Program-made: the position numbers and the translations under genes | Notes under the pieces: model-generated | Told to the model about the DNA's origin: nothing | The model's input: only the letters and a program-made list of their open reading frames with translations | Database searches by the model: none | Part shown: piece after piece, positions 49,254 through 64,000 of the stretch | Position numbering within the stretch: the first letter of the stretch is position 1 | Layout: every line of letters begins with the position of its first letter | Virus record (IMG/VR): IMGVR_UViG_3300020438_004435 | Strand: one strand, 5' to 3' | Source: a virus | DNA: 64,000 nucleotides

Positions 49254-49631
49254 TTATTTCCACTTTTTATTTTTAACAATTTGTGCAATAATACCATATA
49301 TTGAAAGGTCTTGAAATGTATCTTTTACTGATTCAGTCTTAACCTTTGCTTCCTTACTTAATAATACTAATTGCTTTAATCGTTGAATCTTATCATTCAT
49401 TCTGAACCATAAACCTGTTAATGCTACCTTTTCTTCTTCCGGAGTATCAAGATTGGATCCTACCGATATATTTCCTTTACCATAATCTAACATCTTACGA
49501 GCAAATAAATGAAATTGTTCTCTCGATATTTGTTCATATGCTTTATGAATATCAGGATACCTGTCCTGTAATTCCTGTATATCATTACAATAAGTTTTTT
49601 CTGCTGTAAAATCGCGTTCGTCTATTTTCAT
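49254..49631 (-). CDS. DUF1599 / nucleotide-modification-associated domain protein
   Basis: KMLDYG..RMNDKIQRL..ESVKDTFQDLSIYGII. Confidence 0.7.
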   Translation of the reverse strand: MKIDERDFTAEKTYCNDIQELQDRYPDIHKAYEQISREQFHLFARKMLDYGKGNISVGSNLDTPEEEKVALTGLWFRMNDKIQRLKQLVLLSKEAKVKTESVKDTFQDLSIYGIIAQIVKNKKWK

Positions 49632-51769: not shown

Positions 51770-53687
<1,918 letters not shown>

Positions 53688-53696
53688 AATTTTCTC

Positions 53697-54410
53697 CTAA
53701 TTTACGTTTGTTTGCACCATGTAATATTTTGATGCATATTCCTTATTCTTAAATGTTAATACAGCTAATCCATCTGCACTAACCTCCATTAGTCCTTCTT
53801 CATTATCTTTATTTGCCGCAAGAATTTCTCTAAGATATTCTGCACTAAATGAAATTGGTTGCATATCACCATCAGCTTCTGCTGATACATTAATATTAAT
53901 TCTATTACTATTATTATCTGAATGACCGAGAATAATTTGAGTAATACTATTTGATATTACAGTAAAATGCTCTGCATCACTCAAAGCATTCTTTGCCTTG
54001 ATAAATTTCATAATAAAGTCATTAGTAATTTTAATTCTTACAGTAGCTTCAGGAGTTGCTTTTAATTTAGGTGCTTTTGGTATTACATCTAAATCTGCAA
54101 GCATATAATTAAGTGCAACATCACTATCCGTAATTGTTATACCTATTGCTCTTTCATCTACCATTTTTAATTTGAGATCGATTGAATTGCCTACTACACC
54201 TAACATTTTCTGTAATTGGGATGTATTATAAATTCCTAATTCACAATCCTGCATTTGTAAATCATTTAATTTAACAACCCCTAATAATGTTTTACAACCA
54301 GATATAAATTCTGTTTGTAGACTATTATCAGAGATAGCCCATTTTACTGCTTCAATATTGTTGCCAAGTGAGTACTTTTCAACGAAACCCGTGAGTTTTT
54401 GTTTGTCCAT
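53697..54410 (-). CDS. Sliding clamp (T4 gp45-like)
   Basis: Size; GIYNTSQL; FIKAKNAL; position next to the polymerase and near the clamp loader. Confidence 0.75.
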   Translation of the reverse strand: MDKQKLTGFVEKYSLGNNIEAVKWAISDNSLQTEFISGCKTLLGVVKLNDLQMQDCELGIYNTSQLQKMLGVVGNSIDLKLKMVDERAIGITITDSDVALNYMLADLDVIPKAPKLKATPEATVRIKITNDFIMKFIKAKNALSDAEHFTVISNSITQIILGHSDNNSNRININVSAEADGDMQPISFSAEYLREILAANKDNEEGLMEVSADGLAVLTFKNKEYASKYYMVQTNVN

Positions 54411-54457: not shown

Positions 54458-57043
54458 TTAAAATTCAAAGAATTTCCGTATAATTTTTATATTTTTTTCA
54501 GGAAGATTTCCCCACTTCATTGCTATGTAAAAAGCTTCCAATTTGTTTTTCAATTCACCGTTAAAGATTTTATTATAATTTGTATACTTCCCAATAAAAT
54601 CTTTTATTTCTTCAGGATCATCATAACCCTTTAATGCACAACTTTCTATGCCTAATGGATTATCGGTGAGATATACCCATTTTATTTTATCACCATTATT
54701 AATTTTACCTGCATTCTCCTTATCATAATAGGTTAGCAAATCATTATAATTTATTGATGCCTTTACATGAGCAGGAACACCCTTAAACGATGTATTAAAT
54801 GGTTTATAGGTTCCTGATGCTGGTAAATATTTTCTAATATTTTTTACTCCTGTAGATTTGGCTATATCAACTATTGGATATGTAGGAATTGCTAATCTAA
54901 ATTCATAAATTTTATTATCTATCTCATCCTTAGGAACATTTTGTAAAATATCCATAAGAATTTCTCCAAGAAATTTCTTAAATGCTGCAGGATAATTTGA
55001 TCTTACTACGTCAATACCTTTAACATCTAATTTATTCACTACAACACCTTCGGAATTAATTATCCACTGTGCATATCTTTTTTTAGCTATCCATATACCT
55101 GACTTAGCTACAGTCTCCTGTTTAATATCAAATTTATGCGTATCAAGATTATGAAATTTTTTAGCATAAGGTGTATATGTATCATTAATATGATTTTGAA
55201 CCTCTTCAGCAATACCCAAAATCTTTTCCGTCATAATCTCATCATCAGATGTATCTATACCTGGAAATCTATGCTTAACAAGAGGTAAAGCTGAAAAGAA
55301 TACTGAGTCTGTATCTGTGTATATACAATGTTCTGTTGATGCATCCAATTCCCTATTATAATAATGATCAACTATCTTAGCCGTATTTTTAATTAATTGT
55401 TGACCTGACAATGTAATAGCTTCTGCATTATCTAAATCAAACCATCTAAATGTAGGAGATCCTAATACTCCATACATTGAATTTAGAAGAATTTTAGTAA
55501 CCCATTGTCTTTGGTGAAAGTATTCCCTTTTATCATCATCACCTGCTTGTGCATGCTTTTTCATTAAATTCTTAAAGGTCATTCTATCTTCAAACCACTT
55601 TTCCAAAATAGCTGGAATTAGGCCTTTCTTTCTTGTATTGTATATAGCCCCATTAGCTGCTATTGAATACCTATTTTCTTCCAACCAGGATCTAAGATGG
55701 CTTGTGGTTTCCCATTGAGTGTATTTGAATTTAGCATACTTATTTTTTACCTGACCCTCATATGGTCTATCTTCATTTTTAAGGAATGCCTGCAAATCAA
55801 AATCATGTATTGTAGATACCTTAGTATCTGGAGATATATTTAATGACATAATTAAAGATGGATAAAGTGATGTTAAATCTAAATCATATATCCATTCATA
55901 TCTACCAGGTTTTGGATCCATTACAAATGCACCACTATACTTAGCATCTTTTTTATTATCAAAATTCTTATTAGGCGCTACTACATTTATTGTTCTCAAA
56001 TATGTAAGGATAGCTCCTTCAAGAATCTGAGATTGTACATATATTTTTTCATATGGTACATGGCCTTTATGGCATATTGCTCTTGCTAAATCAATATATT
56101 TAAGCTTTTCATCCAACCTTTTTACTATCTCAACATCATTAAGGTTATATTCGATAAACTTATCTATATCGGTTCTAAATAAGTCATCTAATGTTCCGTC
56201 ATATTCTATCTTACCAAGATCAACCTCTATCTTACCAATAACATCCAATCTATATGATGATCTTTCATTGATTGTAAACTTTTTATATAGTGCTAAATAA
56301 TCTAATACATCAACACCCAAAAGATTATATTTTAATTCCTTATCTTGGCCACCCATCTTTGACCATTGATTTGCTTCTTTTACAATATTAATTCTACTTA
56401 ATGCATTTGCAACATCATGACCACATACTCTTGCCATCCTAGCATACAAATATGGTATATCAAAAAATTCAATATTCCAACCTGTTAAAATTGTAGGATC
56501 ATAATTCTTATAAGCTTCCATAAAGGTTTGTAATAATTCCTGTTCGGTTAAACAAGATATTATTTGAACATTATCTTTGATACTAGATTTAACCAATCTT
56601 TCAGGATCTAATATCAATACACCATATTCATTCTCACTTTTTAGCCAATAAGCTATTGATGTAATTTTATTCATAGGATTCCGAGAATTAGGAAATCCTT
56701 GTAAAATCTCTGTCTCAATATCAAAATAAAATTCCCTATGATTGGTTGATGGTTCATCTGAATGACCATATTCATCAATCAATACTCTGGTTTCTAATTG
56801 AACATCCGATTCATATATCTGACCCTTCTTTAACTCCTCGTCAGACCATCTACGAACCTGTTTAACGGCTTTACCATCTAAAGTGTATGATTTGCCTTTA
56901 GGATCTTTTTTATAGCCGTAGCGATAGTCTTTGAGCGGTCTTTTAATATAGCCATCTTCATCATCCCATATATGAGCCCAGCCCTTCGTCCAATATCCTT
57001 GCGGTGTTTGCTGAGGTCTTTCAATTGCTATATTTTGATACAT
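54458..57043 (-). CDS. Family B DNA polymerase (T4 gp43-like)
   Basis: Exo YFDIET, GWNIEFFD, YNLND; Pol DLTSLYPS, KILLNSMYG, YTDTDS; no intein evident. Confidence 0.96.
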   Translation of the reverse strand: MYQNIAIERPQQTPQGYWTKGWAHIWDDEDGYIKRPLKDYRYGYKKDPKGKSYTLDGKAVKQVRRWSDEELKKGQIYESDVQLETRVLIDEYGHSDEPSTNHREFYFDIETEILQGFPNSRNPMNKITSIAYWLKSENEYGVLILDPERLVKSSIKDNVQIISCLTEQELLQTFMEAYKNYDPTILTGWNIEFFDIPYLYARMARVCGHDVANALSRINIVKEANQWSKMGGQDKELKYNLLGVDVLDYLALYKKFTINERSSYRLDVIGKIEVDLGKIEYDGTLDDLFRTDIDKFIEYNLNDVEIVKRLDEKLKYIDLARAICHKGHVPYEKIYVQSQILEGAILTYLRTINVVAPNKNFDNKKDAKYSGAFVMDPKPGRYEWIYDLDLTSLYPSLIMSLNISPDTKVSTIHDFDLQAFLKNEDRPYEGQVKNKYAKFKYTQWETTSHLRSWLEENRYSIAANGAIYNTRKKGLIPAILEKWFEDRMTFKNLMKKHAQAGDDDKREYFHQRQWVTKILLNSMYGVLGSPTFRWFDLDNAEAITLSGQQLIKNTAKIVDHYYNRELDASTEHCIYTDTDSVFFSALPLVKHRFPGIDTSDDEIMTEKILGIAEEVQNHINDTYTPYAKKFHNLDTHKFDIKQETVAKSGIWIAKKRYAQWIINSEGVVVNKLDVKGIDVVRSNYPAAFKKFLGEILMDILQNVPKDEIDNKIYEFRLAIPTYPIVDIAKSTGVKNIRKYLPASGTYKPFNTSFKGVPAHVKASINYNDLLTYYDKENAGKINNGDKIKWVYLTDNPLGIESCALKGYDDPEEIKDFIGKYTNYNKIFNGELKNKLEAFYIAMKWGNLPEKNIKIIRKFFEF

Positions 57044-57237: not shown

Positions 57238-57738
57238 TTATATACTTTTTAATTCTTCGTCTGTAAAAAATTGTTTTAGATTTGGTCTGAAATAATTAAT
57301 TGATTTCATCACCTTATTATCACTACTTCTATATACCACCCATCTGTCACCAACCTTTTCATAATGACAAGGATGGCCTTTTTCTTCTGATCTTAAAGCA
57401 ACAGTTGCCTTTGCTTCACTTTCTGTAGCACATGATTTAGACATATTTGAAGCTTGTACCTCTTTATATGCTGGTTCTATTCTATCTTTAAGACCATGCA
57501 ACATAGCTCCATTTCCTAATGATACATAAGTAATATCCGCTAATGCATCTAATACTTCTACTATATCACCCTTTTCACATGCTTCTTTATATTCCGCTAA
57601 TTCTTCCATAATAAAATCATATACAAACATCCATTCCTTTTTATCTGGAATATTAGGTGTATAATTATTTGGTTTGCCGAATGTAGCATTAAATTCCTCT
57701 ACCTCACTTATAAATGGTACTTTTTTATTATCTTTCAT
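57238..57738 (-). CDS. MazG-like/all-alpha NTP pyrophosphohydrolase
   Basis: FIMEELAEY..EVLDALADITY..EVQASNMSK. Confidence 0.85.
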   Translation of the reverse strand: MKDNKKVPFISEVEEFNATFGKPNNYTPNIPDKKEWMFVYDFIMEELAEYKEACEKGDIVEVLDALADITYVSLGNGAMLHGLKDRIEPAYKEVQASNMSKSCATESEAKATVALRSEEKGHPCHYEKVGDRWVVYRSSDNKVMKSINYFRPNLKQFFTDEELKSI

Positions 57739-57739
57739 T

Positions 57740-58390
57740 TTATAATCCTCCTATAAATTCATAAAACTCTGAACGAGCTAAATTATTATTATCCATAAAT
57801 ACACCAGACATCTTTGCTGTCTTCATTGTTGAATCGTGCTTTACACCTCTTACACATGCACACATATGTCCAGCTTCTACCATAACAGCTACACCTATAT
57901 TTCCACCTGTAACCTTATTTATATGATCATGGATTTGCATTGTTAAATTTTCCTGCACTTGCGGTCTTCTTGCATAAAATTCCGCAATTCTATTTAATTT
58001 ACTCAATCCAATAATTTGACCATCCTTTGAAGGAATATAAGCTACATGAGCCTTGCCTATAAATGGTTGATGATGATGAGAACATAATGAATGTATTTTA
58101 ATATTACCTTGAAATACCATACCATCATACTTATCCACATTATCAAATGCTGTAATTTTAGGTTCATTATTATAACATCCTTCAGCTATATCATTTACCC
58201 AAGCTTTAGCTACTCTCATAGGAGTATCATTTGAATTAGGATCATTTCTCCAATCAAATCCTAAAGCATCCATATATTTGGAATATGCTTTAGCTGCTTT
58301 CTTAATTAACCTTTCTTGTTGTTTCGGTGTTAATGGTAAATTACCATTTGCATATTTTAATTTCTCAGTCATTTGTTTTCCCTTTTGCAT
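57740..58390 (-). CDS. folE: GTP cyclohydrolase I
   Basis: DTPMRVAK; [10 protein letters not shown]; GLSKLNRI; RPQVQENLT; HMCACVRGV. Confidence 0.95.
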
Positions 58391-58883
58391 AAATATTTTC
58401 TAAATTTCTACTTAACCCTAAATCATCTAATCCATATCCTACTACCCATTCATCATTTATCTCAAATCCATATAAATCAATTGGATGTGTATTATCTTTT
58501 CTTTTTAATAAAGATACTATACTAATTCTATTTGGTAATTGTTGATTAAAATGAATAACTAATTCCTTCATTGTATTTCCTGTATCTATTATATCATCTA
58601 TAATATACAAATTTTTTCCCAATAAATCAACTTCTACATCACTTTTTATTTGAACTCCTGAAGAATTATCTTTACCGATATATGATTTTGCTCTTATGAA
58701 ATCAATCTCACATAATCCATTATACTCTGATACTAAATCTGTAAAGAATTTATAAGCTCCATTTAATACACATATAAACACTGGTGGTAAACCATTATCA
58801 TATTTAGTAGTGTGTTGTTCTAATTGTTCAGCCATTATCTTGATACGATCGGCTAATTGAGGTTTATCTATTAATATGTCCAT
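58365..58883 (-). CDS. hpt: Hypoxanthine/guanine phosphoribosyltransferase
   Basis: [13 protein letters not shown]; [11 protein letters not shown]; [11 protein letters not shown]. Confidence 0.9.
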
Positions 58884-59323
58884 TTAATAATATCTTTGAA
58901 TCGTTCATCTTTTGCGTCTATCCTACATAATCCACCATTCAATGGACCAATACAACAATTTATGGATGCTATTACCTTTCTCATATCCGGCAAGCTATAC
59001 CAGCATGCTACATTATTTTTTATATCTACGTGGTATATTCTATCGGATTTTGATTTCCAAAACCACCCAGGACTGTAATCCTTTTCAAATTCAAGATAAA
59101 AATGTCCATCATTTAGATTACCCTTACTATCTAGATAATATGCATTATACCAGCTATCTTTTTTAATACCGAAATCTATTCCATCTGTCTGCGCTTTCCA
59201 ATCTTCTCTTAGATCAATAACTTCATCATAAACCGTATTTAATTTATTAAATAGCCATTCCTCTGCTTTACCACCTTTTAATCCTGATACACCAAATTTC
59301 TTGGTTAATTGTTCTGTACTCAT
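58871..59323 (-). CDS. PD-(D/E)XK restriction-endonuclease-like protein
   Basis: GGKAEE..GIDF..LDSK..FYLE..GWFWKSKSD pattern. Confidence 0.5.
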   Translation of the reverse strand: MSTEQLTKKFGVSGLKGGKAEEWLFNKLNTVYDEVIDLREDWKAQTDGIDFGIKKDSWYNAYYLDSKGNLNDGHFYLEFEKDYSPGWFWKSKSDRIYHVDIKNNVACWYSLPDMRKVIASINCCIGPLNGGLCRIDAKDERFKDIIKWTY

Positions 59324-59329
59324 ATTTTA

Positions 59330-59482
59330 TTATTTTTGTTGTTTATCATATTCATGTATTGCTATTCTTAATTTTGTAATCAGATCCTTTATATCCAACG
59401 GATCCATGGTTACCGCACAACAGGTATCTTCCACCTGATCTTCGATTTCCTTTAATATAGCATATATTTCCTTTATTGTCAT
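59330..59482 (-). CDS. 50-aa hypothetical protein (below the ORF-track cutoff)
   Basis: MTIKEIYAILKEIEDQVEDTCCAVTMDPLDIKDLITKLRIAIHEYDKQQK; TAATG-coupled to queE. Confidence 0.65.
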   Translation of the reverse strand: MTIKEIYAILKEIEDQVEDTCCAVTMDPLDIKDLITKLRIAIHEYDKQQK

Positions 59483-60255
59483 TATACACCACGATCTGTA
59501 TCATATGCTATAATATGATCCCTACCTGTCATATTATATCCATGTTCTGCAACCATTTCAAATACTAATGGATACATTTTAACTAATGTCTCTCTAGTAT
59601 CACCAGCTGGCATAACATAGGTCTTATCTTTTGGTATATCCAATTCAATTCTATAATCCTCAATTTCCTTAAGATTTTCCTCTGTGCCATCCCATACAGG
59701 CTTGAAATGATAATCCTTATGATATGACATCATTTGTTTTATTGCTTCCGTATTTTGTCTAAGTCTATTATGAGTCTTTATCATTTTTTCATCCACCACC
59801 TTACCTGCTGGAGTAATAGCTCCTATTACTGGAACACTATTACTAAATTTAGGACTGATAGATAATAGATCTAATGGATAATCTGTTTCTACAAATTTAC
59901 TTCCCTCTGTTTCTATAGTAACTATAATACCTCTTTCATTAGCAAAATGTGTTATTTCATTCACCAATGCTGGATGCATGGTAGGAGATCCTCCTGTTAA
60001 CATCATTTCCTTTACCTGAGGGTTCTCATCATAAATTTTAATAATATCATTAAAGCTGAATGTTCCCTTTTCTGGGTGTATTGATGTATACCATGAATCA
60101 CACCATCCTCCATCACCAAAATAACATCTATGAGTACAACCTGTTGTCCTTACGGCAATTGTTGGCCTTCCAAATCTACTTCCTTCTGATTGTACACATC
60201 TATATACTTCTAATATAGGTAATACTTTATTATAATCTTCTATTCTTTTACGCAT
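59482..60255 (-). CDS. queE: 7-carboxy-7-deazaguanine synthase (radical SAM)
   Basis: VQSEG; RTTGCTHRCYFGDGGWCD; LTGGSP; IETEG; SISPK. Confidence 0.9.
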   Translation of the reverse strand: MRKRIEDYNKVLPILEVYRCVQSEGSRFGRPTIAVRTTGCTHRCYFGDGGWCDSWYTSIHPEKGTFSFNDIIKIYDENPQVKEMMLTGGSPTMHPALVNEITHFANERGIIVTIETEGSKFVETDYPLDLLSISPKFSNSVPVIGAITPAGKVVDEKMIKTHNRLRQNTEAIKQMMSYHKDYHFKPVWDGTEENLKEIEDYRIELDIPKDKTYVMPAGDTRETLVKMYPLVFEMVAEHGYNMTGRDHIIAYDTDRGV

Positions 60256-61024
60256 GAGACTCTAATAATTTTTCTACATGATCCTTTGCTGTTTCCCAAC
60301 CATCAATATATTCCACAGGATCCTTTCTGTTTAATTTTAAGAATGCTTCAATTCTTTCTACCGATGATGCTGATTTATAATCTGATCTTCCCTCTGCATC
60401 AGGTTTATATGATGTATTTGTTCTTTTATAAACCTCATCAAAATCTAATCCTAATACAGCGCAAGCTGCTTCACCATCAACTAATATACCATATTTATCA
60501 TCCTCCAAATATGGTGTAATATATTTTACTTTATCAGCATCCCAATTACCCTGCTTGAATGCTTCATAATCTGCGTCTCTAAATTCCTGTCTACAATCAG
60601 GATAAATAGCATGATCGCCTGCATGTATACCCATTGCTATTTTTACTTCACAATCATTTTGTTGAGCTATAGATAATGCTACTGCTTGAATGATAGATGA
60701 GAATATTTTATTTCTGTTAGGAACAACGGTATCTTTCATATTGTCCTCTTCATAATGACCTTCAGGTACCTCTTCACCGCCTTTTACAAGATTTGAATCT
60801 AATAATCCAACCAATCCTTGTAATGTTATTCTTTGATATTTTACAGAATGACCATTTCTATCTAAATACTCTATTAATTCCGCTGCTCTTTCTAATTCTA
60901 CATTATGCTTTTGACCGTAATCAAAACTTAATGCTGTTACTTCATAGCCATGTGCCAATAAATGTAACAATACTGTACTACTGTCCATTCCACCTGATAA
61001 AGATAATACTGCTTGTTTTTTCAT
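60248..61024 (-). CDS. queC: 7-cyano-7-deazaguanine synthase
   Basis: LSGGMDSS; FDYGQKH; VVPNRN; GIHAGDH..YPDCR. Confidence 0.92.
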   Translation of the reverse strand: MKKQAVLSLSGGMDSSTVLLHLLAHGYEVTALSFDYGQKHNVELERAAELIEYLDRNGHSVKYQRITLQGLVGLLDSNLVKGGEEVPEGHYEEDNMKDTVVPNRNKIFSSIIQAVALSIAQQNDCEVKIAMGIHAGDHAIYPDCRQEFRDADYEAFKQGNWDADKVKYITPYLEDDKYGILVDGEAACAVLGLDFDEVYKRTNTSYKPDAEGRSDYKSASSVERIEAFLKLNRKDPVEYIDGWETAKDHVEKLLESHA

Positions 61025-61026
61025 AT

Positions 61027-61647
61027 TTATTCTCCTATTTTTTCTAGTGTAACGTCCTTTTCTTCCATTTCAATCTTACCTGTTTCTTCTAGATAATCCT
61101 TTATTTCCTGAACTCTTTCATCTATGCCTATTGTCTCTAATTCTACTACCTCTAAATCAGGATGTCCATTCTTTATTACATGAATAGTATTTTTCATATG
61201 TATAGCTATCTTTTCCTGATACTCTGCATCAGTATCCCTTACACCATCCTCTTTAAGAAATTCTTTATAAGGTGGAATATATATAATTAAATCGAATGGA
61301 AAAGTATGCATAATAGCATTCATAATCCTACTTGAATAATTAACCGATTGTGAACTAACAAATCCATCTTGCATACATTGCATTGCATAAGCATGAGAAT
61401 CAATTATACATCTATCAAATAATGAATATTTGTGTGCATATTGAGCTTCTTGTGCATTTCTTAAATGAGTAAGAGTAATTAAATCTTGCGAATAATCATC
61501 CCCTTCTTTATTTATTTTTACATTAGAATTCTTAGCTAATGATCTAACCACTTCATCATATACATGCATCCATGGCATAGCTACTTTTAATTTATTTACT
61601 AATGTTGTCTTACCTGTTCCCTGTGCTCCTACAAAAGCTATTTTCAT
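61027..61647 (-). CDS. P-loop nucleotide kinase (AAA_28/dNMP-kinase-like)
   Basis: GAQGTGKTT; FDRCIID..AY; EDGVR. Confidence 0.75.
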   Translation of the reverse strand: MKIAFVGAQGTGKTTLVNKLKVAMPWMHVYDEVVRSLAKNSNVKINKEGDDYSQDLITLTHLRNAQEAQYAHKYSLFDRCIIDSHAYAMQCMQDGFVSSQSVNYSSRIMNAIMHTFPFDLIIYIPPYKEFLKEDGVRDTDAEYQEKIAIHMKNTIHVIKNGHPDLEVVELETIGIDERVQEIKDYLEETGKIEMEEKDVTLEKIGE

Positions 61648-61670
61648 ATTTTTCTCCTTTATTATAATAT

Positions 61671-61681
61671 AATATACAAAA
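61671..61681 (-). promoter_or_regulatory. TTTTGTATATT motif with an exact TAATTTTG (TAnnTTTG) match
   Basis: Minus strand TAATTTTGTATATT, 24 nt upstream of the kinase ATG. Confidence 0.5.
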
Positions 61682-62434
61682 TTATTTTAATATATCCAAC
61701 ACATATCGCTGATTTTTTAGCATTAATTCCTCATTTACTGAATATGGTTCCTCTAAATCAATTGTCCAATCGGGCTTCATATAATCATATTTATCCTCAA
61801 ATTTTATTCCATCTATGGCACAATGATATACTATACTAGTATCCACTCCTCTTATTAAGGATTTTTCTTCTGATGTATATTCCTTGAATTCATCTACTGT
61901 ACTCCAACATCCTAATAAATGAATATCTTTATTTTGAGGATTATTTGCTAATGCATATCTTACCGCCTCTGGCCTTCCTCCAGCAAATTGTGTCTCAGTA
62001 ACCTTTGGTACTGCTAATACATCTACATCATCATATTTGCTTAATGTATCCCATGTACTTTTCCATTCTTCAGGATTCTTTCCATGACAAACTACCTGCA
62101 ACTTTGTTTCTTCCATCATTAACCATAATTCAACCTTTGATAATGCTATATCGGTTGATTTGATTGTAGCTTTACCATCTCTATATACATCTGGTAATAC
62201 TATTTCTGATGGTCTTAATTCCTCTGCTGCTTTCATTACAACATCTGATTGTAATGCTTTATTACCTAATTCAATTAAAGAATTATCTAAAATGACATAT
62301 TCTCCATTAGCTAATTTTTGTTTATAAAATTCCGTATATTTAGGATATTTTAATATTAAATGTGTTAATGCCATATGATAATCAGTATTATCATATTTTA
62401 GGTCGTGTGTTGGACAAATAAATGCTACTTTCAT
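61682..62434 (-). CDS. TGT/DpdA-like TIM-barrel protein (candidate 7-deazaguanine DNA transglycosylase)
   Basis: ILDNSLIELG, VLPDV, VVCHG, HLLGC and GVDTS parallel the TGT-fold DSG/HxLG/SxDS motifs; lies between queD and queC. Confidence 0.6.
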   Translation of the reverse strand: MKVAFICPTHDLKYDNTDYHMALTHLILKYPKYTEFYKQKLANGEYVILDNSLIELGNKALQSDVVMKAAEELRPSEIVLPDVYRDGKATIKSTDIALSKVELWLMMEETKLQVVCHGKNPEEWKSTWDTLSKYDDVDVLAVPKVTETQFAGGRPEAVRYALANNPQNKDIHLLGCWSTVDEFKEYTSEEKSLIRGVDTSIVYHCAIDGIKFEDKYDYMKPDWTIDLEEPYSVNEELMLKNQRYVLDILK

Positions 62435-62443
62435 ATTATATTC

Positions 62444-62998
62444 TTAAATAAATGTTTTTGGATTATTATTTTGCTTTACATCATCATCTGTATCAGACAT
62501 AGTATTGCCATTAGGTATACCTGTTATTTCTCTAGGTTGATGAGTATCTACATTTGGATAGTATATTGCTGAATTATTTGTTCCGCCTTCAAATGATTCT
62601 ACCTTCAATACCCTTACTCTTCCGTTTGTTTCTTCTAACATCTTATCATTAATAAGATTATATACCCATTCTGCATATCTTTCACAACCAACATGATCCA
62701 TAACCCTTAATTGAACAAGTCCTACTTTATCCATCTTTCTAAATATTTCTAAATGTGGATCATCTGCAGCTACGACTGTTGTATGATCGAATTGATTTGC
62801 TAATTCCTCTTTGATGCCATTTCTTTTGAAACACCCAAAATCACAAACATAGTTCATGTGATCCAATTCACCCTCGAACCATACCTTAAATTTTAATGCA
62901 TACCCATGCACGAATTGGCAATGTGAATGTGTTGCTCTGTGTTGTCTAAATGCTGTACTAAATCCATCAAATATTTTTGTACTCTTAAATTGTGTCAT
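62444..62998 (-). CDS. queD: 6-carboxy-5,6,7,8-tetrahydropterin synthase
   Basis: SHCQFVHGY; VCDFG; FDHTT; GCERYAE. Confidence 0.9.
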   Translation of the reverse strand: MTQFKSTKIFDGFSTAFRQHRATHSHCQFVHGYALKFKVWFEGELDHMNYVCDFGCFKRNGIKEELANQFDHTTVVAADDPHLEIFRKMDKVGLVQLRVMDHVGCERYAEWVYNLINDKMLEETNGRVRVLKVESFEGGTNNSAIYYPNVDTHQPREITGIPNGNTMSDTDDDVKQNNNPKTFI

Positions 62999-63476
62999 TT
63001 TTTTCTCCGTTTAGGTTATATAATTCTGATTGATGTAGATCATCGCAGAACTTTTCGTAATTATTTATTAATGAGCTTTTATATCTATGATATTCATGCC
63101 CGGGTTTTCCATTAAGTGGTTTTCTTAATCTTTCAACAATCCTATTTCTGAGTATCATTGAAGCACTCATATCAGGTTGCCAATCATTATGGTATTTTTT
63201 AGGAAATTCATTAAGGTCTAATTTGGTTCCAGGTTTGAAATTACGTCTTCGCATTTCATTATTGACTGCACCTAATCTCTTTTTAAGATATACTAATTTA
63301 TTCTTAAAAAAATTTATATGACCCGTTCCCATCTTAAATATTGCAGGAACTGGAGATTTAATCTCAAAACCATGTTTTCTTAAACCACCTGTGATCATAG
63401 TGATTTCTACACTTTCAGCTATCAAATGCTGATCTGATAAATGTTTAGGATCTACTCCTATATTAACTCTTGCCAT
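62985..63476 (-). CDS. denV: Pyrimidine-dimer DNA glycosylase / endonuclease V
   Basis: MARVN..LSDQHLIAESVE..MGTGHINFF; start 63476 preferred. Confidence 0.8.
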   Translation of the reverse strand: MARVNIGVDPKHLSDQHLIAESVEITMITGGLRKHGFEIKSPVPAIFKMGTGHINFFKNKLVYLKKRLGAVNNEMRRRNFKPGTKLDLNEFPKKYHNDWQPDMSASMILRNRIVERLRKPLNGKPGHEYHRYKSSLINNYEKFCDDLHQSELYNLNGEKNDTI

Positions 63477-63488
63477 AACTATTTTATT

Positions 63489-63499
63489 AATATACAAAA
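63489..63499 (-). promoter_or_regulatory. TTTTGTATATT motif
   Basis: 13 nt upstream of the denV ATG. Confidence 0.5.
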
Positions 63500-63554
63500 A
63501 ATTATTTTAACTACCAAATTTATTATAAATTATTATTTTTATACATTTCAATGT

Positions 63555-63743
63555 TTATTCCCATTTTCTATTGTATTTTTCCCTTTGATCAATTAATACA
63601 TATTCTACTGTATCGTGATGACCACAATGAGGACATCTTAATTTTTCCAATTTATCTGCCTCATTGATTTTCCATTCACCTTCGCATTTTTTATTGCTAC
63701 ATTTGTAAATGTATGTATGTCTTATAAATACTTTGTGTCCCAT
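63555..63743 (-). CDS. Small zinc-ribbon protein
   Basis: CSNKKC and CPHCG. Confidence 0.65.
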   Translation of the reverse strand: MGHKVFIRHTYIYKCSNKKCEGEWKINEADKLEKLRCPHCGHHDTVEYVLIDQREKYNRKWE

Positions 63744-63780
63744 TTGAATACCCCAATTGTTTATTAGTACACATAACCAT

Positions 63781-63951
63781 TTATATATTATTTTTATATG
63801 GACAATGTCTGCAGTTAGAGTTGCAGCAAGAGCCTCTTCTTTTATGATACATTTCGGTCATAACCATTTTTCCCTCTTCCCAATAAAATTCATCTGGTTT
63901 TAATTTAGGTTTAAGGAATTCCTTATAATATAAATCCTGTATCCAATCCAC
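63781..63951 (-). CDS. DUF5522-like small Cys-rich protein
   Basis: YHKRRGSCCNSNCRHCPY; GTG start at 63951 proposed because the longer ORF overlaps the upstream gene. Confidence 0.6.
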   Translation of the reverse strand: MDWIQDLYYKEFLKPKLKPDEFYWEEGKMVMTEMYHKRRGSCCNSNCRHCPYKNNI

Positions 63952-63952
63952 T

Positions 63953-64000
63953 TTATTTGACCTCACAACTTCCTCCTGCACAAGCTAATTCGCCTGCAAG
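63953..64000 (-). CDS. C-terminal tip of a probable class II (B12-dependent) ribonucleotide reductase, partial
   Basis: Minus strand reads LAGELACAGGSCEVK-stop, matching the ELACAGGxCE C-terminal redox-Cys motif of monomeric NrdJ-type enzymes; only 15 codons visible. Confidence 0.6.
   Translation of the reverse strand, partial: LAGELACAGGSCEVK

Follow-up and report, generated by a model that had tools for sequence, protein, structure and literature searches.

We analyzed a 64,000-nt stretch of the IMG/VR virus record IMGVR_UViG_3300020438_004435 (hereafter, the window), the last 10 kb of which carry a minus-strand string of genes for 7-deazaguanine synthesis, nucleotide metabolism, and DNA replication. 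All genes of this string are co-directional and tightly packed, either overlapping or separated by gaps of no more than 57 nt. Scans with Pfam, PHROG, and NCBIfam, from which the gene calls were made, confirmed the order polB-MazG-folE-hpt-…-queE-queC-kinase-TGT/DpdA-queD-RNR (ribonucleotide reductase) that an earlier note on this DNA had proposed. Specifically, the string comprises QueD (6-carboxytetrahydropterin synthase, PTPS family; 62444–62998; Pfam PTPS, E = 1.5e-13; NCBIfam QueD below cutoff), a TGT-like transglycosylase of 250 aa with no Pfam match (61682–62434), a small P-loop kinase of the AAA_28/dNK type (61027–61647), QueC (7-cyano-7-deazaguanine synthase; 60248–61024; Pfam QueC, E = 1.5e-38; TIGR00364, E = 3e-36, below cutoff), QueE (radical SAM 7-carboxy-7-deazaguanine synthase; 59482–60255; Pfam Radical_SAM, E = 4.6e-7; top NCBIfam matches to five QueE models, each below cutoff), Hpt (hypoxanthine-guanine phosphoribosyltransferase [HGPRT]; 58365–58883; PDB and TIGR01203 matches), FolE (GTP cyclohydrolase I; 57740–58390; Pfam GTP_cyclohydroI, E = 2e-48), a MazG-like all-alpha NTP pyrophosphohydrolase of the PRA-PH type (57238–57738), and PolB, a family B DNA polymerase that comes next in the same string (54458–57043; NCBIfam DNA polymerase II models, E = 4e-47). 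This gene order recurs in three IMG/VR contigs whose transglycosylases are 92–94% identical to that of the window. None of 50,697 phage records matched the region in a megablast search. Terminator-like sites were absent between positions 54000 and 64000, and sigma-70-like promoter sites occurred at chance level (74 found vs 68 expected) under a model that is ill-suited to Bacteroidota. We interpret the string as a module for DpdA3-type 7-deazaguanine genome substitution in a large Bacteroidota-type phage.

On the evidence of sequence comparison and structure modeling, the gene at 61682–62434 can be assigned to the published DpdA3 subfamily. The label "TGT/DpdA-like" in the earlier note thus named the right family but did not recognize the subfamily. 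In tblastn searches, the protein matched phiST CGPG_00065, CP220 gp056, and immuto gp206 (E = 9e-10, 2e-6, and 6e-7, respectively), and the matches were confined to Firehammerviruses (including CP220), phiST, the Flavobacterium phage immuto (where the gene is annotated as DpdA), BSP7-like Bacillus phages, and Weizmannia phage Youna2. In a tree of the DpdA3 family (86 rows), the window protein falls inside the family, and its gene is clustered with those for 7-deazaguanine base synthesis (QueD, QueC, QueE, and FolE). An AlphaFold2 model built with 58 homologues (predicted local distance difference test score, 93.6; predicted template modeling score, 0.91) resembled ArcTGT (Z = 17.8, root mean square deviation of 3.2 over 224 residues) and bacterial TGT (Z = 17.4), with Z-scores of 17 to 18 over ~230 residues for the ArcTGT/TGT cores; the bacterial DpdA structure 7ui4 was also among the matches (Foldseek E = 7e-6). 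The modeled architecture is a bare TIM barrel, without the Zn subdomain or any of the extra domains of the tRNA and DNA enzymes. Among the 58 sequences, D50, E55, E77, D82, H172, G175, and D198 were invariant; D50, D82, and D198 may correspond to TGT D102/D156/D280, as judged from motif order alone. With medians of 5.7 for DpdA3 and 5.8 for DpdA1/2, in effect the same, the isoelectric point says nothing about DNA binding. In locus L184, what looked like a DpdA3 of 428 aa proved to be DpdA3 and a separate DpdN-like gene.

Next, we compared the surroundings of DpdA3 genes with those of other phage DpdA genes. The DpdA3 loci consisted of the annotated neighborhoods of five named DpdA3 phages together with 80 loci that the DpdA3 alignment retrieved from IMG/VR, and the control was composed of 86 DpdA1/2 loci (79 from IMG/VR and seven from named phages, with CAjan as the query). 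When collapsed at 60% identity, these loci yielded 58 DpdA3 and 14 control lineages. Hidden Markov models of the kinase family, built in this analysis, matched 23 of 89 DpdA3 loci and none of the 86 DpdA1/2 loci. At the lineage level, a small protein with an N-terminal Walker A motif was encoded on the same strand within 3 kb in 20 of 58 DpdA3 lineages vs 1 of 14 control lineages (Fisher p = 0.053). In 17 of the 20 kinase loci, the kinase gene overlapped dpdA3 or lay no more than 60 nt away, on the upstream or the downstream side depending on the lineage, and kinase-positive rows were spread across the deepest branches of the DpdA3 tree. The reverse search, in which the kinase was compared with 1.84 billion protein representatives, gave 149 matches at E ≤ 1e-10. 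Among 12 of these homologues sampled, which sit mostly on contigs of 1–4 kb, seven were directly beside a DpdA3-like gene, two were beside QueC or QueF, and three were uninformative; this reverse test is stronger evidence of linkage than the locus counts. Thus, the kinase is specifically tied to DpdA3. The earlier note had suggested examining the co-occurrence of hpt, kinase, and mazG with que genes across phages, and this comparison bore out the kinase but not the MazG gene, which was not enriched, while phosphoribosyltransferases (PRTases) occurred in 7 of the 58 DpdA3 lineages.

The same association is visible in individual genomes. A small P-loop protein adjoins dpdA3 in all five named DpdA3 phages, namely CP220 gp057 (AAA_28) and gp055 (HD fused to AAA_33), immuto gp203 (AAA_28), phiST CGPG_00066 (AAA_18), and, by a weak match only, BSP7_056 and a 183-aa protein of Youna2. 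Moreover, CP220, phiST, and immuto each combine the kinase beside dpdA3 with a hydrolase of (deoxy)nucleoside triphosphates ([d]NTPs), which is gp055 (HD/AAA_33) in CP220, the MazG 00068 in phiST, and the PRA-PH protein gp208 in immuto. No open reading frame (ORF) in the 89 loci matched both the DpdA3 and the kinase models. A 523-aa protein (P0260; L181 955–2526) fuses the AAA_28 kinase to an ArcS-type DUF5591 domain; its gene is flanked by QueC and by a DpdA3-like gene (hhalign probability, 99.6%), and the contig begins with a fragment of a 5′-3′ deoxyribonucleotidase. In addition, two tandem kinase paralogues follow dpdA3 at L077 1039–2168 and may carry out two successive phosphorylation steps.

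The window kinase matched both Pfam AAA_28 (E = 3e-16, 60.4 bits) and dNK (E = 1e-8, 35.5 bits) above the cutoff of 27 bits that applies to each. It has an N-terminal Walker A motif, a DR motif, and a LID Arg; G7, G12, K13, T15, R79, and R137 are invariant in the family, and D78, Q54, and Y87 are nearly so. When its profile was searched against the PDB, the matches were NadR ribosylnicotinamide kinase (2e-10), deoxyguanosine kinase (6.5e-7; deoxyguanosine and deoxynucleoside kinases in general stood at ~1e-7), and thymidylate kinase (2e-6). The nearest solved relatives are therefore 5′-phosphotransferases that act on free nucleosides or nucleotides. The genomic linkage makes a 7-deaza-(d)G nucleoside or nucleotide a candidate substrate of the kinase. 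Homologues also occur in ~86 Streptomyces phages; in Paradiddles (L097 6231–7618) and most of the listed records, the homologue has a "methyltransferase" as its partner (of 256 aa in Paradiddles, where MazG also adjoins DnaE). This kinase/methyltransferase combination may represent another nucleotide-level modification pair.

The PRTase of the string tells a different story. The window Hpt matched 58 solved entries of the HGPRT family (best, PDB 4qri; E = 2e-29), and its match to TIGR01203 (E = 1e-38; 132.8 bits) fell below the equivalog cutoff of 150, so that it is a divergent member of the family by its Pfam and PDB matches. In the HGPRT mechanism, a conserved Asp (human D137) acts on the purine N7, an atom that 7-deazaguanines lack. 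Alignments to 4qri and 3o7m indicated that the window protein keeps the DDIIDTGNT phosphoribosyl pyrophosphate (PRPP) loop with this Asp, the O6-contacting Lys, and the VVGYGLD hood. The PRTases near dpdA3 are far rarer than the kinase and come from two 6-oxopurine families that are used interchangeably, the Hpt-like family (as in the window) and the Gpt-like family (as in immuto); elsewhere, phage records contain few true Hpt genes. In 14 control loci of the DpdA1 type (L136 6438–7346, L157, L167, L130, L117, and others), FolE carries a fused Gpt-like domain at its N-terminus (hhalign against the PRT alignment, 97.4%; Pfam Pribosyltran at or below cutoff), a predicted "Rosetta-stone" fusion that connects guanine salvage with GTP cyclohydrolase I. 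For DpdA1 enzymes, DNA transglycosylase activity is proven. Given that the N7-contacting Asp is kept and that DpdA1 phages have a Gpt-like PRTase as a fusion with FolE, the most likely role of Hpt is to recycle the guanine released rather than to make deaza-nucleotides; the PRTase-FolE link would therefore reflect refueling of FolE by conversion of guanine to GTP rather than a deazapurine PRTase step. Recycling of guanine to GTP had been offered in the earlier note as a second possibility, and it fits this link, which is seen even in DpdA1 phages.

As for the MazG-like protein, its assignment is clear (Pfam PRA-PH, E = 1.2e-11, 45.3 bits vs a gathering cutoff of 21.3; phrog_671, "nucleotide pyrophosphohydrolase," E = 2e-29), and no solved close relative was found. 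Depending on the lineage, non-homologous dNTP hydrolases occur near dpdA3, including MazG/PRA-PH, dUTPase_2, trimeric DCD/dUTPase-like, and HD (CP220) proteins. MazG, dUTPase, or DCD-type hydrolases were present in 21 of 58 DpdA3 lineages vs 4 of 14 control lineages, with no significant difference. Since MazG is no commoner beside DpdA3 than beside DpdA1/2 at this level, we dropped it as specific evidence; the gene is compatible with exclusion of dGTP but is not evidence for it. A Vut_1 (YhhQ-type) transporter gene lies beside MazG or DCD and dpdA3 in three loci (L022 6709–7356, L026 786–1436, and L018 6478–7248). Few que genes are visible on the contigs of these lineages, which suggests that the deazaguanine base is imported instead of synthesised.

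The closest known system is the fdPreQ1 cluster of immuto, a parallel that the earlier note did not mention. Like the window, immuto is a large Bacteroidota phage with FolE, QueD, QueE, DpdA3, an AAA_28 kinase, a PRA-PH/MazG-like hydrolase, and a purine PRTase in one string, placed ahead of a DNA polymerase and then GroES/GroEL. Because immuto already has the PRTase, the PRA-PH hydrolase, and the kinase, the window represents another member of a known cluster type. Nevertheless, the two DpdA3 proteins share 28% identity and belong to different clades, the polymerase is PolB in the window and PolA in immuto, the PRTase is Hpt-like in the former and Gpt-like in the latter, and the window cluster includes QueC but shows neither QueF nor the DpdN formyltransferase. 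CP220 (Firehammervirus, Campylobacter; dADG) resembles the window in that its DpdA3 homologue is flanked by P-loop kinases and a phosphohydrolase, but an HD domain fused to the AAA_33 kinase replaces MazG, QueC does not adjoin dpdA3, and the que genes are scattered. In phiST (Cellulophaga; dDG), a comparable QueD-QueE-FolE-MazG-…-P-loop protein-DpdA3-polymerase string includes the DpdL decarboxylase but neither QueC nor a PRTase, and its P-loop protein is AAA_18-like. Measured replacement of G is 100% in each of CP220, phiST, and immuto, and every chemically analyzed DpdA3 phage has fully modified DNA (PMC10516641). By comparison, the DpdA1/DpdA2 phages (CAjan, 9g, Rosebush, and Dp-1/MS1) share FolE/QueD/QueE/QueC and a TGT-like transglycosylase near replication genes, but their DpdA is ~300 aa or more, replacement is partial (0.1–30%), and the kinase family is missing from their loci.

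Two other pathways of complete base replacement provide a functional analogy. In T4, hydroxymethyl-dCTP is supplied by the gp56 dCTPase, the gp42 dCMP hydroxymethylase, and the gp1 dNMP kinase. The Z-genome pathway uses DatZ, MazZ, and PurZ (PMC8342488). Both place a dNTP hydrolase, an enzyme that modifies at the nucleotide level, and a kinase beside a polymerase and reach 100% replacement. Apart from the MazG superfamily, their proteins are not homologous to those of the window, and a nucleotide substrate for DpdA3 is a hypothesis. One DpdA3 neighbor in an alignment of 58 lineages (A2) is an adenylosuccinate synthetase (Pfam, E = 3e-100) that is possibly PurZ-like; a phage modifying both G and A would be notable.

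The path from GTP to the preQ0, 7-amido-7-deazaguanine (ADG), or 7-carboxy-7-deazaguanine (CDG) base is textbook, and FolE, QueD, QueE, and QueC would supply free preQ0 or its amide or carboxy precursor in this phage. In the mechanism that we tentatively favor, and to which we give somewhat less than an even chance, DpdA3 would exchange guanine for the deazaguanine base on a free deoxyguanosine nucleoside or nucleotide, and the adjacent nucleoside-kinase-like enzyme would phosphorylate the product, with host kinases completing the triphosphate. The MazG-like hydrolase might lower dGTP, yielding dGMP, the downstream PolB would write the modified nucleotide into DNA, and Hpt would convert the guanine freed by each swap to GMP and on to GTP for FolE. 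Substitution would then be pre-replicative, a view at which the data hint and for which we infer the substrates, the order of steps, and the final base. We favor it because the linkage of the kinase is specific, reciprocal, and partly fused, because the kinase has a small-molecule character, because the DpdA3 architecture is minimal, and because replacement is complete in all three chemically analyzed DpdA3 phages. Published reports add to these reasons: the ADG nucleoside was reported in the cytoplasm of CP220-infected cells, E. coli DNA stayed unmodified with DpdA3 by itself (PMC10516641), and modified dGTP was proposed earlier for Campylobacter phages (PMC6884629). The pre-replicative idea of the earlier note therefore survives in part, with the kinase as a specific and recurrent partner of DpdA3 and without the Hpt/RNR route.

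Several observations weigh against pre-replicative exchange by DpdA3. To our knowledge, the substrate of every characterized TGT/DpdA relative is a polynucleotide, and the window has no identified enzyme that would take the dNMP to the dNDP. The lineage-level contrast for the kinase is borderline with a control of only 14 lineages, about two-thirds of DpdA3 lineages have no recognizable kinase within 3 kb, and the dNTP hydrolases are no more frequent than in the control. The search from this query found no fused DpdA3 forms longer than 438 aa, which is a weak counterpoint. Lastly, the study in which DpdA3 was defined reached the conclusion of post-replicative insertion; it makes no mention of a kinase, an ATPase, salvage, or a PRTase (PMC10516641).

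Post-replicative insertion is the strongest alternative, and we regard it as a real possibility, though a less probable one than exchange on free nucleotides. According to this model, DpdA3 flips out every G in new phage DNA and inserts the deazaguanine base, the kinase acts either as an ATP-using helper (a functional analogue of DpdB) or with Hpt in guanine-to-GTP salvage, and MazG performs ordinary pool sanitation. DpdA3 is indeed a TGT/DpdA homologue with conserved acidic residues, and an ATP-binding partner has a precedent because bacterial DpdA requires the DpdB ATPase for DNA modification (PMC10164549). DpdA1 genes also adjoin polymerase genes, recycling by Hpt of the guanine released would fit equally well, and both the lineages without a nearby kinase and the lack of DpdA3 specificity of MazG count in its favor. 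However, the kinase resembles nucleoside and nucleotide kinases rather than ParB-like or motor ATPases or guanylate kinase, and it is absent from the DpdA1/2 loci even though the PRT-FolE fusions reveal an investment in guanine salvage there. Furthermore, context-independent replacement of every G would, we believe, be unprecedented for a base-flipping enzyme, and the absence of DNA modification when E. coli received only DpdA3 (PMC10516641) also speaks against this model.

A second alternative, the route put forward in the earlier note, is that Hpt uses PRPP to ribosylate the deazaguanine, a deoxynucleotide is then formed from the product by the kinase and RNR, and MazG removes dGTP, which would make DpdA3 dispensable or a proofreading enzyme. 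All of the required enzyme classes are present in one gene string, and PRTases do recur among DpdA3 lineages, but we consider this route very improbable. The window Hpt is canonical and retains the IIDTG Asp, whose N7 target is missing from 7-deazaguanine; Hpt-like and Gpt-like families substitute for each other; the fusion of a Gpt-like domain to FolE in DpdA1 phages points to GTP supply; the PRTase is far rarer than the kinase; and the universally conserved DpdA3 is left without a role. Even less credible is the explanation that the que genes supply a precursor of tRNA queuosine for the host or phage next to unrelated nucleotide housekeeping of a large phage, which was once proposed for que-bearing phages with no recognized DpdA (PMC6884629), because a DpdA3 homologue is present here, the chemically analyzed DpdA3 phages are fully modified (PMC10516641), and the kinase travels with DpdA3 rather than with general nucleotide metabolism.

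The remaining genes of the string flank or interrupt this core. The "RNR tail" of the earlier note is real but covers only the last 15 codons and stop (63953–64000) of a class II (B12-type) RNR whose remainder lies beyond the window. Its translated end (...ACAGGSCEVK*) is that of a 634-aa ORF at L004:6138-8042, in a 93%-related IMG/VR contig, which matches Ribonuc_red_lgC and RNR-II_ins_dom; farther upstream, this contig encodes a gp32-like single-stranded DNA-binding protein, RecA/UvsX, a 5′-3′ exonuclease, and a DnaB helicase. The start of a 66-aa Cys-rich DUF5522 ORF (63781–63981; the L004 homologue matches Pfam DUF5522, E = 1e-16) overlaps the RNR stop codon and is followed by a 62-aa zinc-ribbon-like ORF (63555–63743) that was recognized by its CxxC...CxxC sequence and a weak match to phrog_5631. 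Both ORFs, which lie between the RNR and DenV genes, are kept in the close relatives L002 and L004. The DenV-like pyrimidine-dimer DNA glycosylase itself (62985–63497; Pfam Pyr_excise, E = 1.4e-11; phrog_1183, E = 4.5e-26), which the earlier note had missed, possibly has a role tied to modified DNA. A second DenV-like glycosylase directly follows dpdA3 in the most distant DpdA3 clade (L082 8729–9214). Of the 86 control loci, a DenV model built from the window clade matched only one; since the model also overlooked L082, it lacks the breadth needed for a control comparison.

Between QueE and Hpt lie a 50-aa ORF and a 150-aa protein (58871–59323) that is PD-(D/E)xK-like by motif (D50...D65-x-K67) but had no matches in the Pfam, PHROG, and NCBIfam scans. 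Its Atlas leads (NOV_C and PDDEXK_14) come from a minority of cluster members. The nuclease named in the earlier note is accordingly a candidate, suggested by the D...DxK motif and these leads. Homologues adjoin que genes in L011, L013, and L014 and are kept in the clusters of the window clade. A 63-aa ORF separates the MazG-like gene from PolB. GroES and GroEL (51770–53687) are located just downstream of PolB with one 237-aa ORF intervening, in the same arrangement as in immuto, and a clamp loader gene is likewise found downstream of PolB. A 125-aa ORF (49254–49631) has a sub-threshold match to DUF1599 ("nucleotide modification associated domain 1"; 23.8 bits vs a cutoff of 25). With regard to the product, no homologues of QueF, DpdL, DpdM, or DpdN were seen in the cluster, and the default is therefore dPreQ0 or a precursor, with preQ0, ADG, or CDG as the predicted base; this agrees with the default product named in the earlier note.

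Post-replicative exchange by DpdA3 is the sole mechanism put forward in print for the replacement of every G in phages, and no reconstitution of it is known. Our comparative data single out the kinase as the candidate missing partner, distinguish it from bystanders such as MazG, and give Hpt another job, namely guanine recycling. The window contributes a further example, in which the FolE-to-QueC set is complete and is joined by an Hpt-type PRTase and PolB. Our working proposal, offered with less than even confidence, is that DpdA3 is, rather than a DNA transglycosylase, a deoxyguanosine or dGMP:7-deazaguanine base-exchange enzyme whose kinase feeds a modified dNTP to the polymerase, with PRTases closing a loop that refuels FolE; all fully G-substituted deazaguanine genomes would then arise pre-replicatively, contrary to the published view. 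If DpdA3 does use free nucleotides, no earlier TGT-family enzyme would be known to act on a mononucleotide, and DpdA3 would be usable for the enzymatic synthesis of 7-deaza-dGTP analogues.

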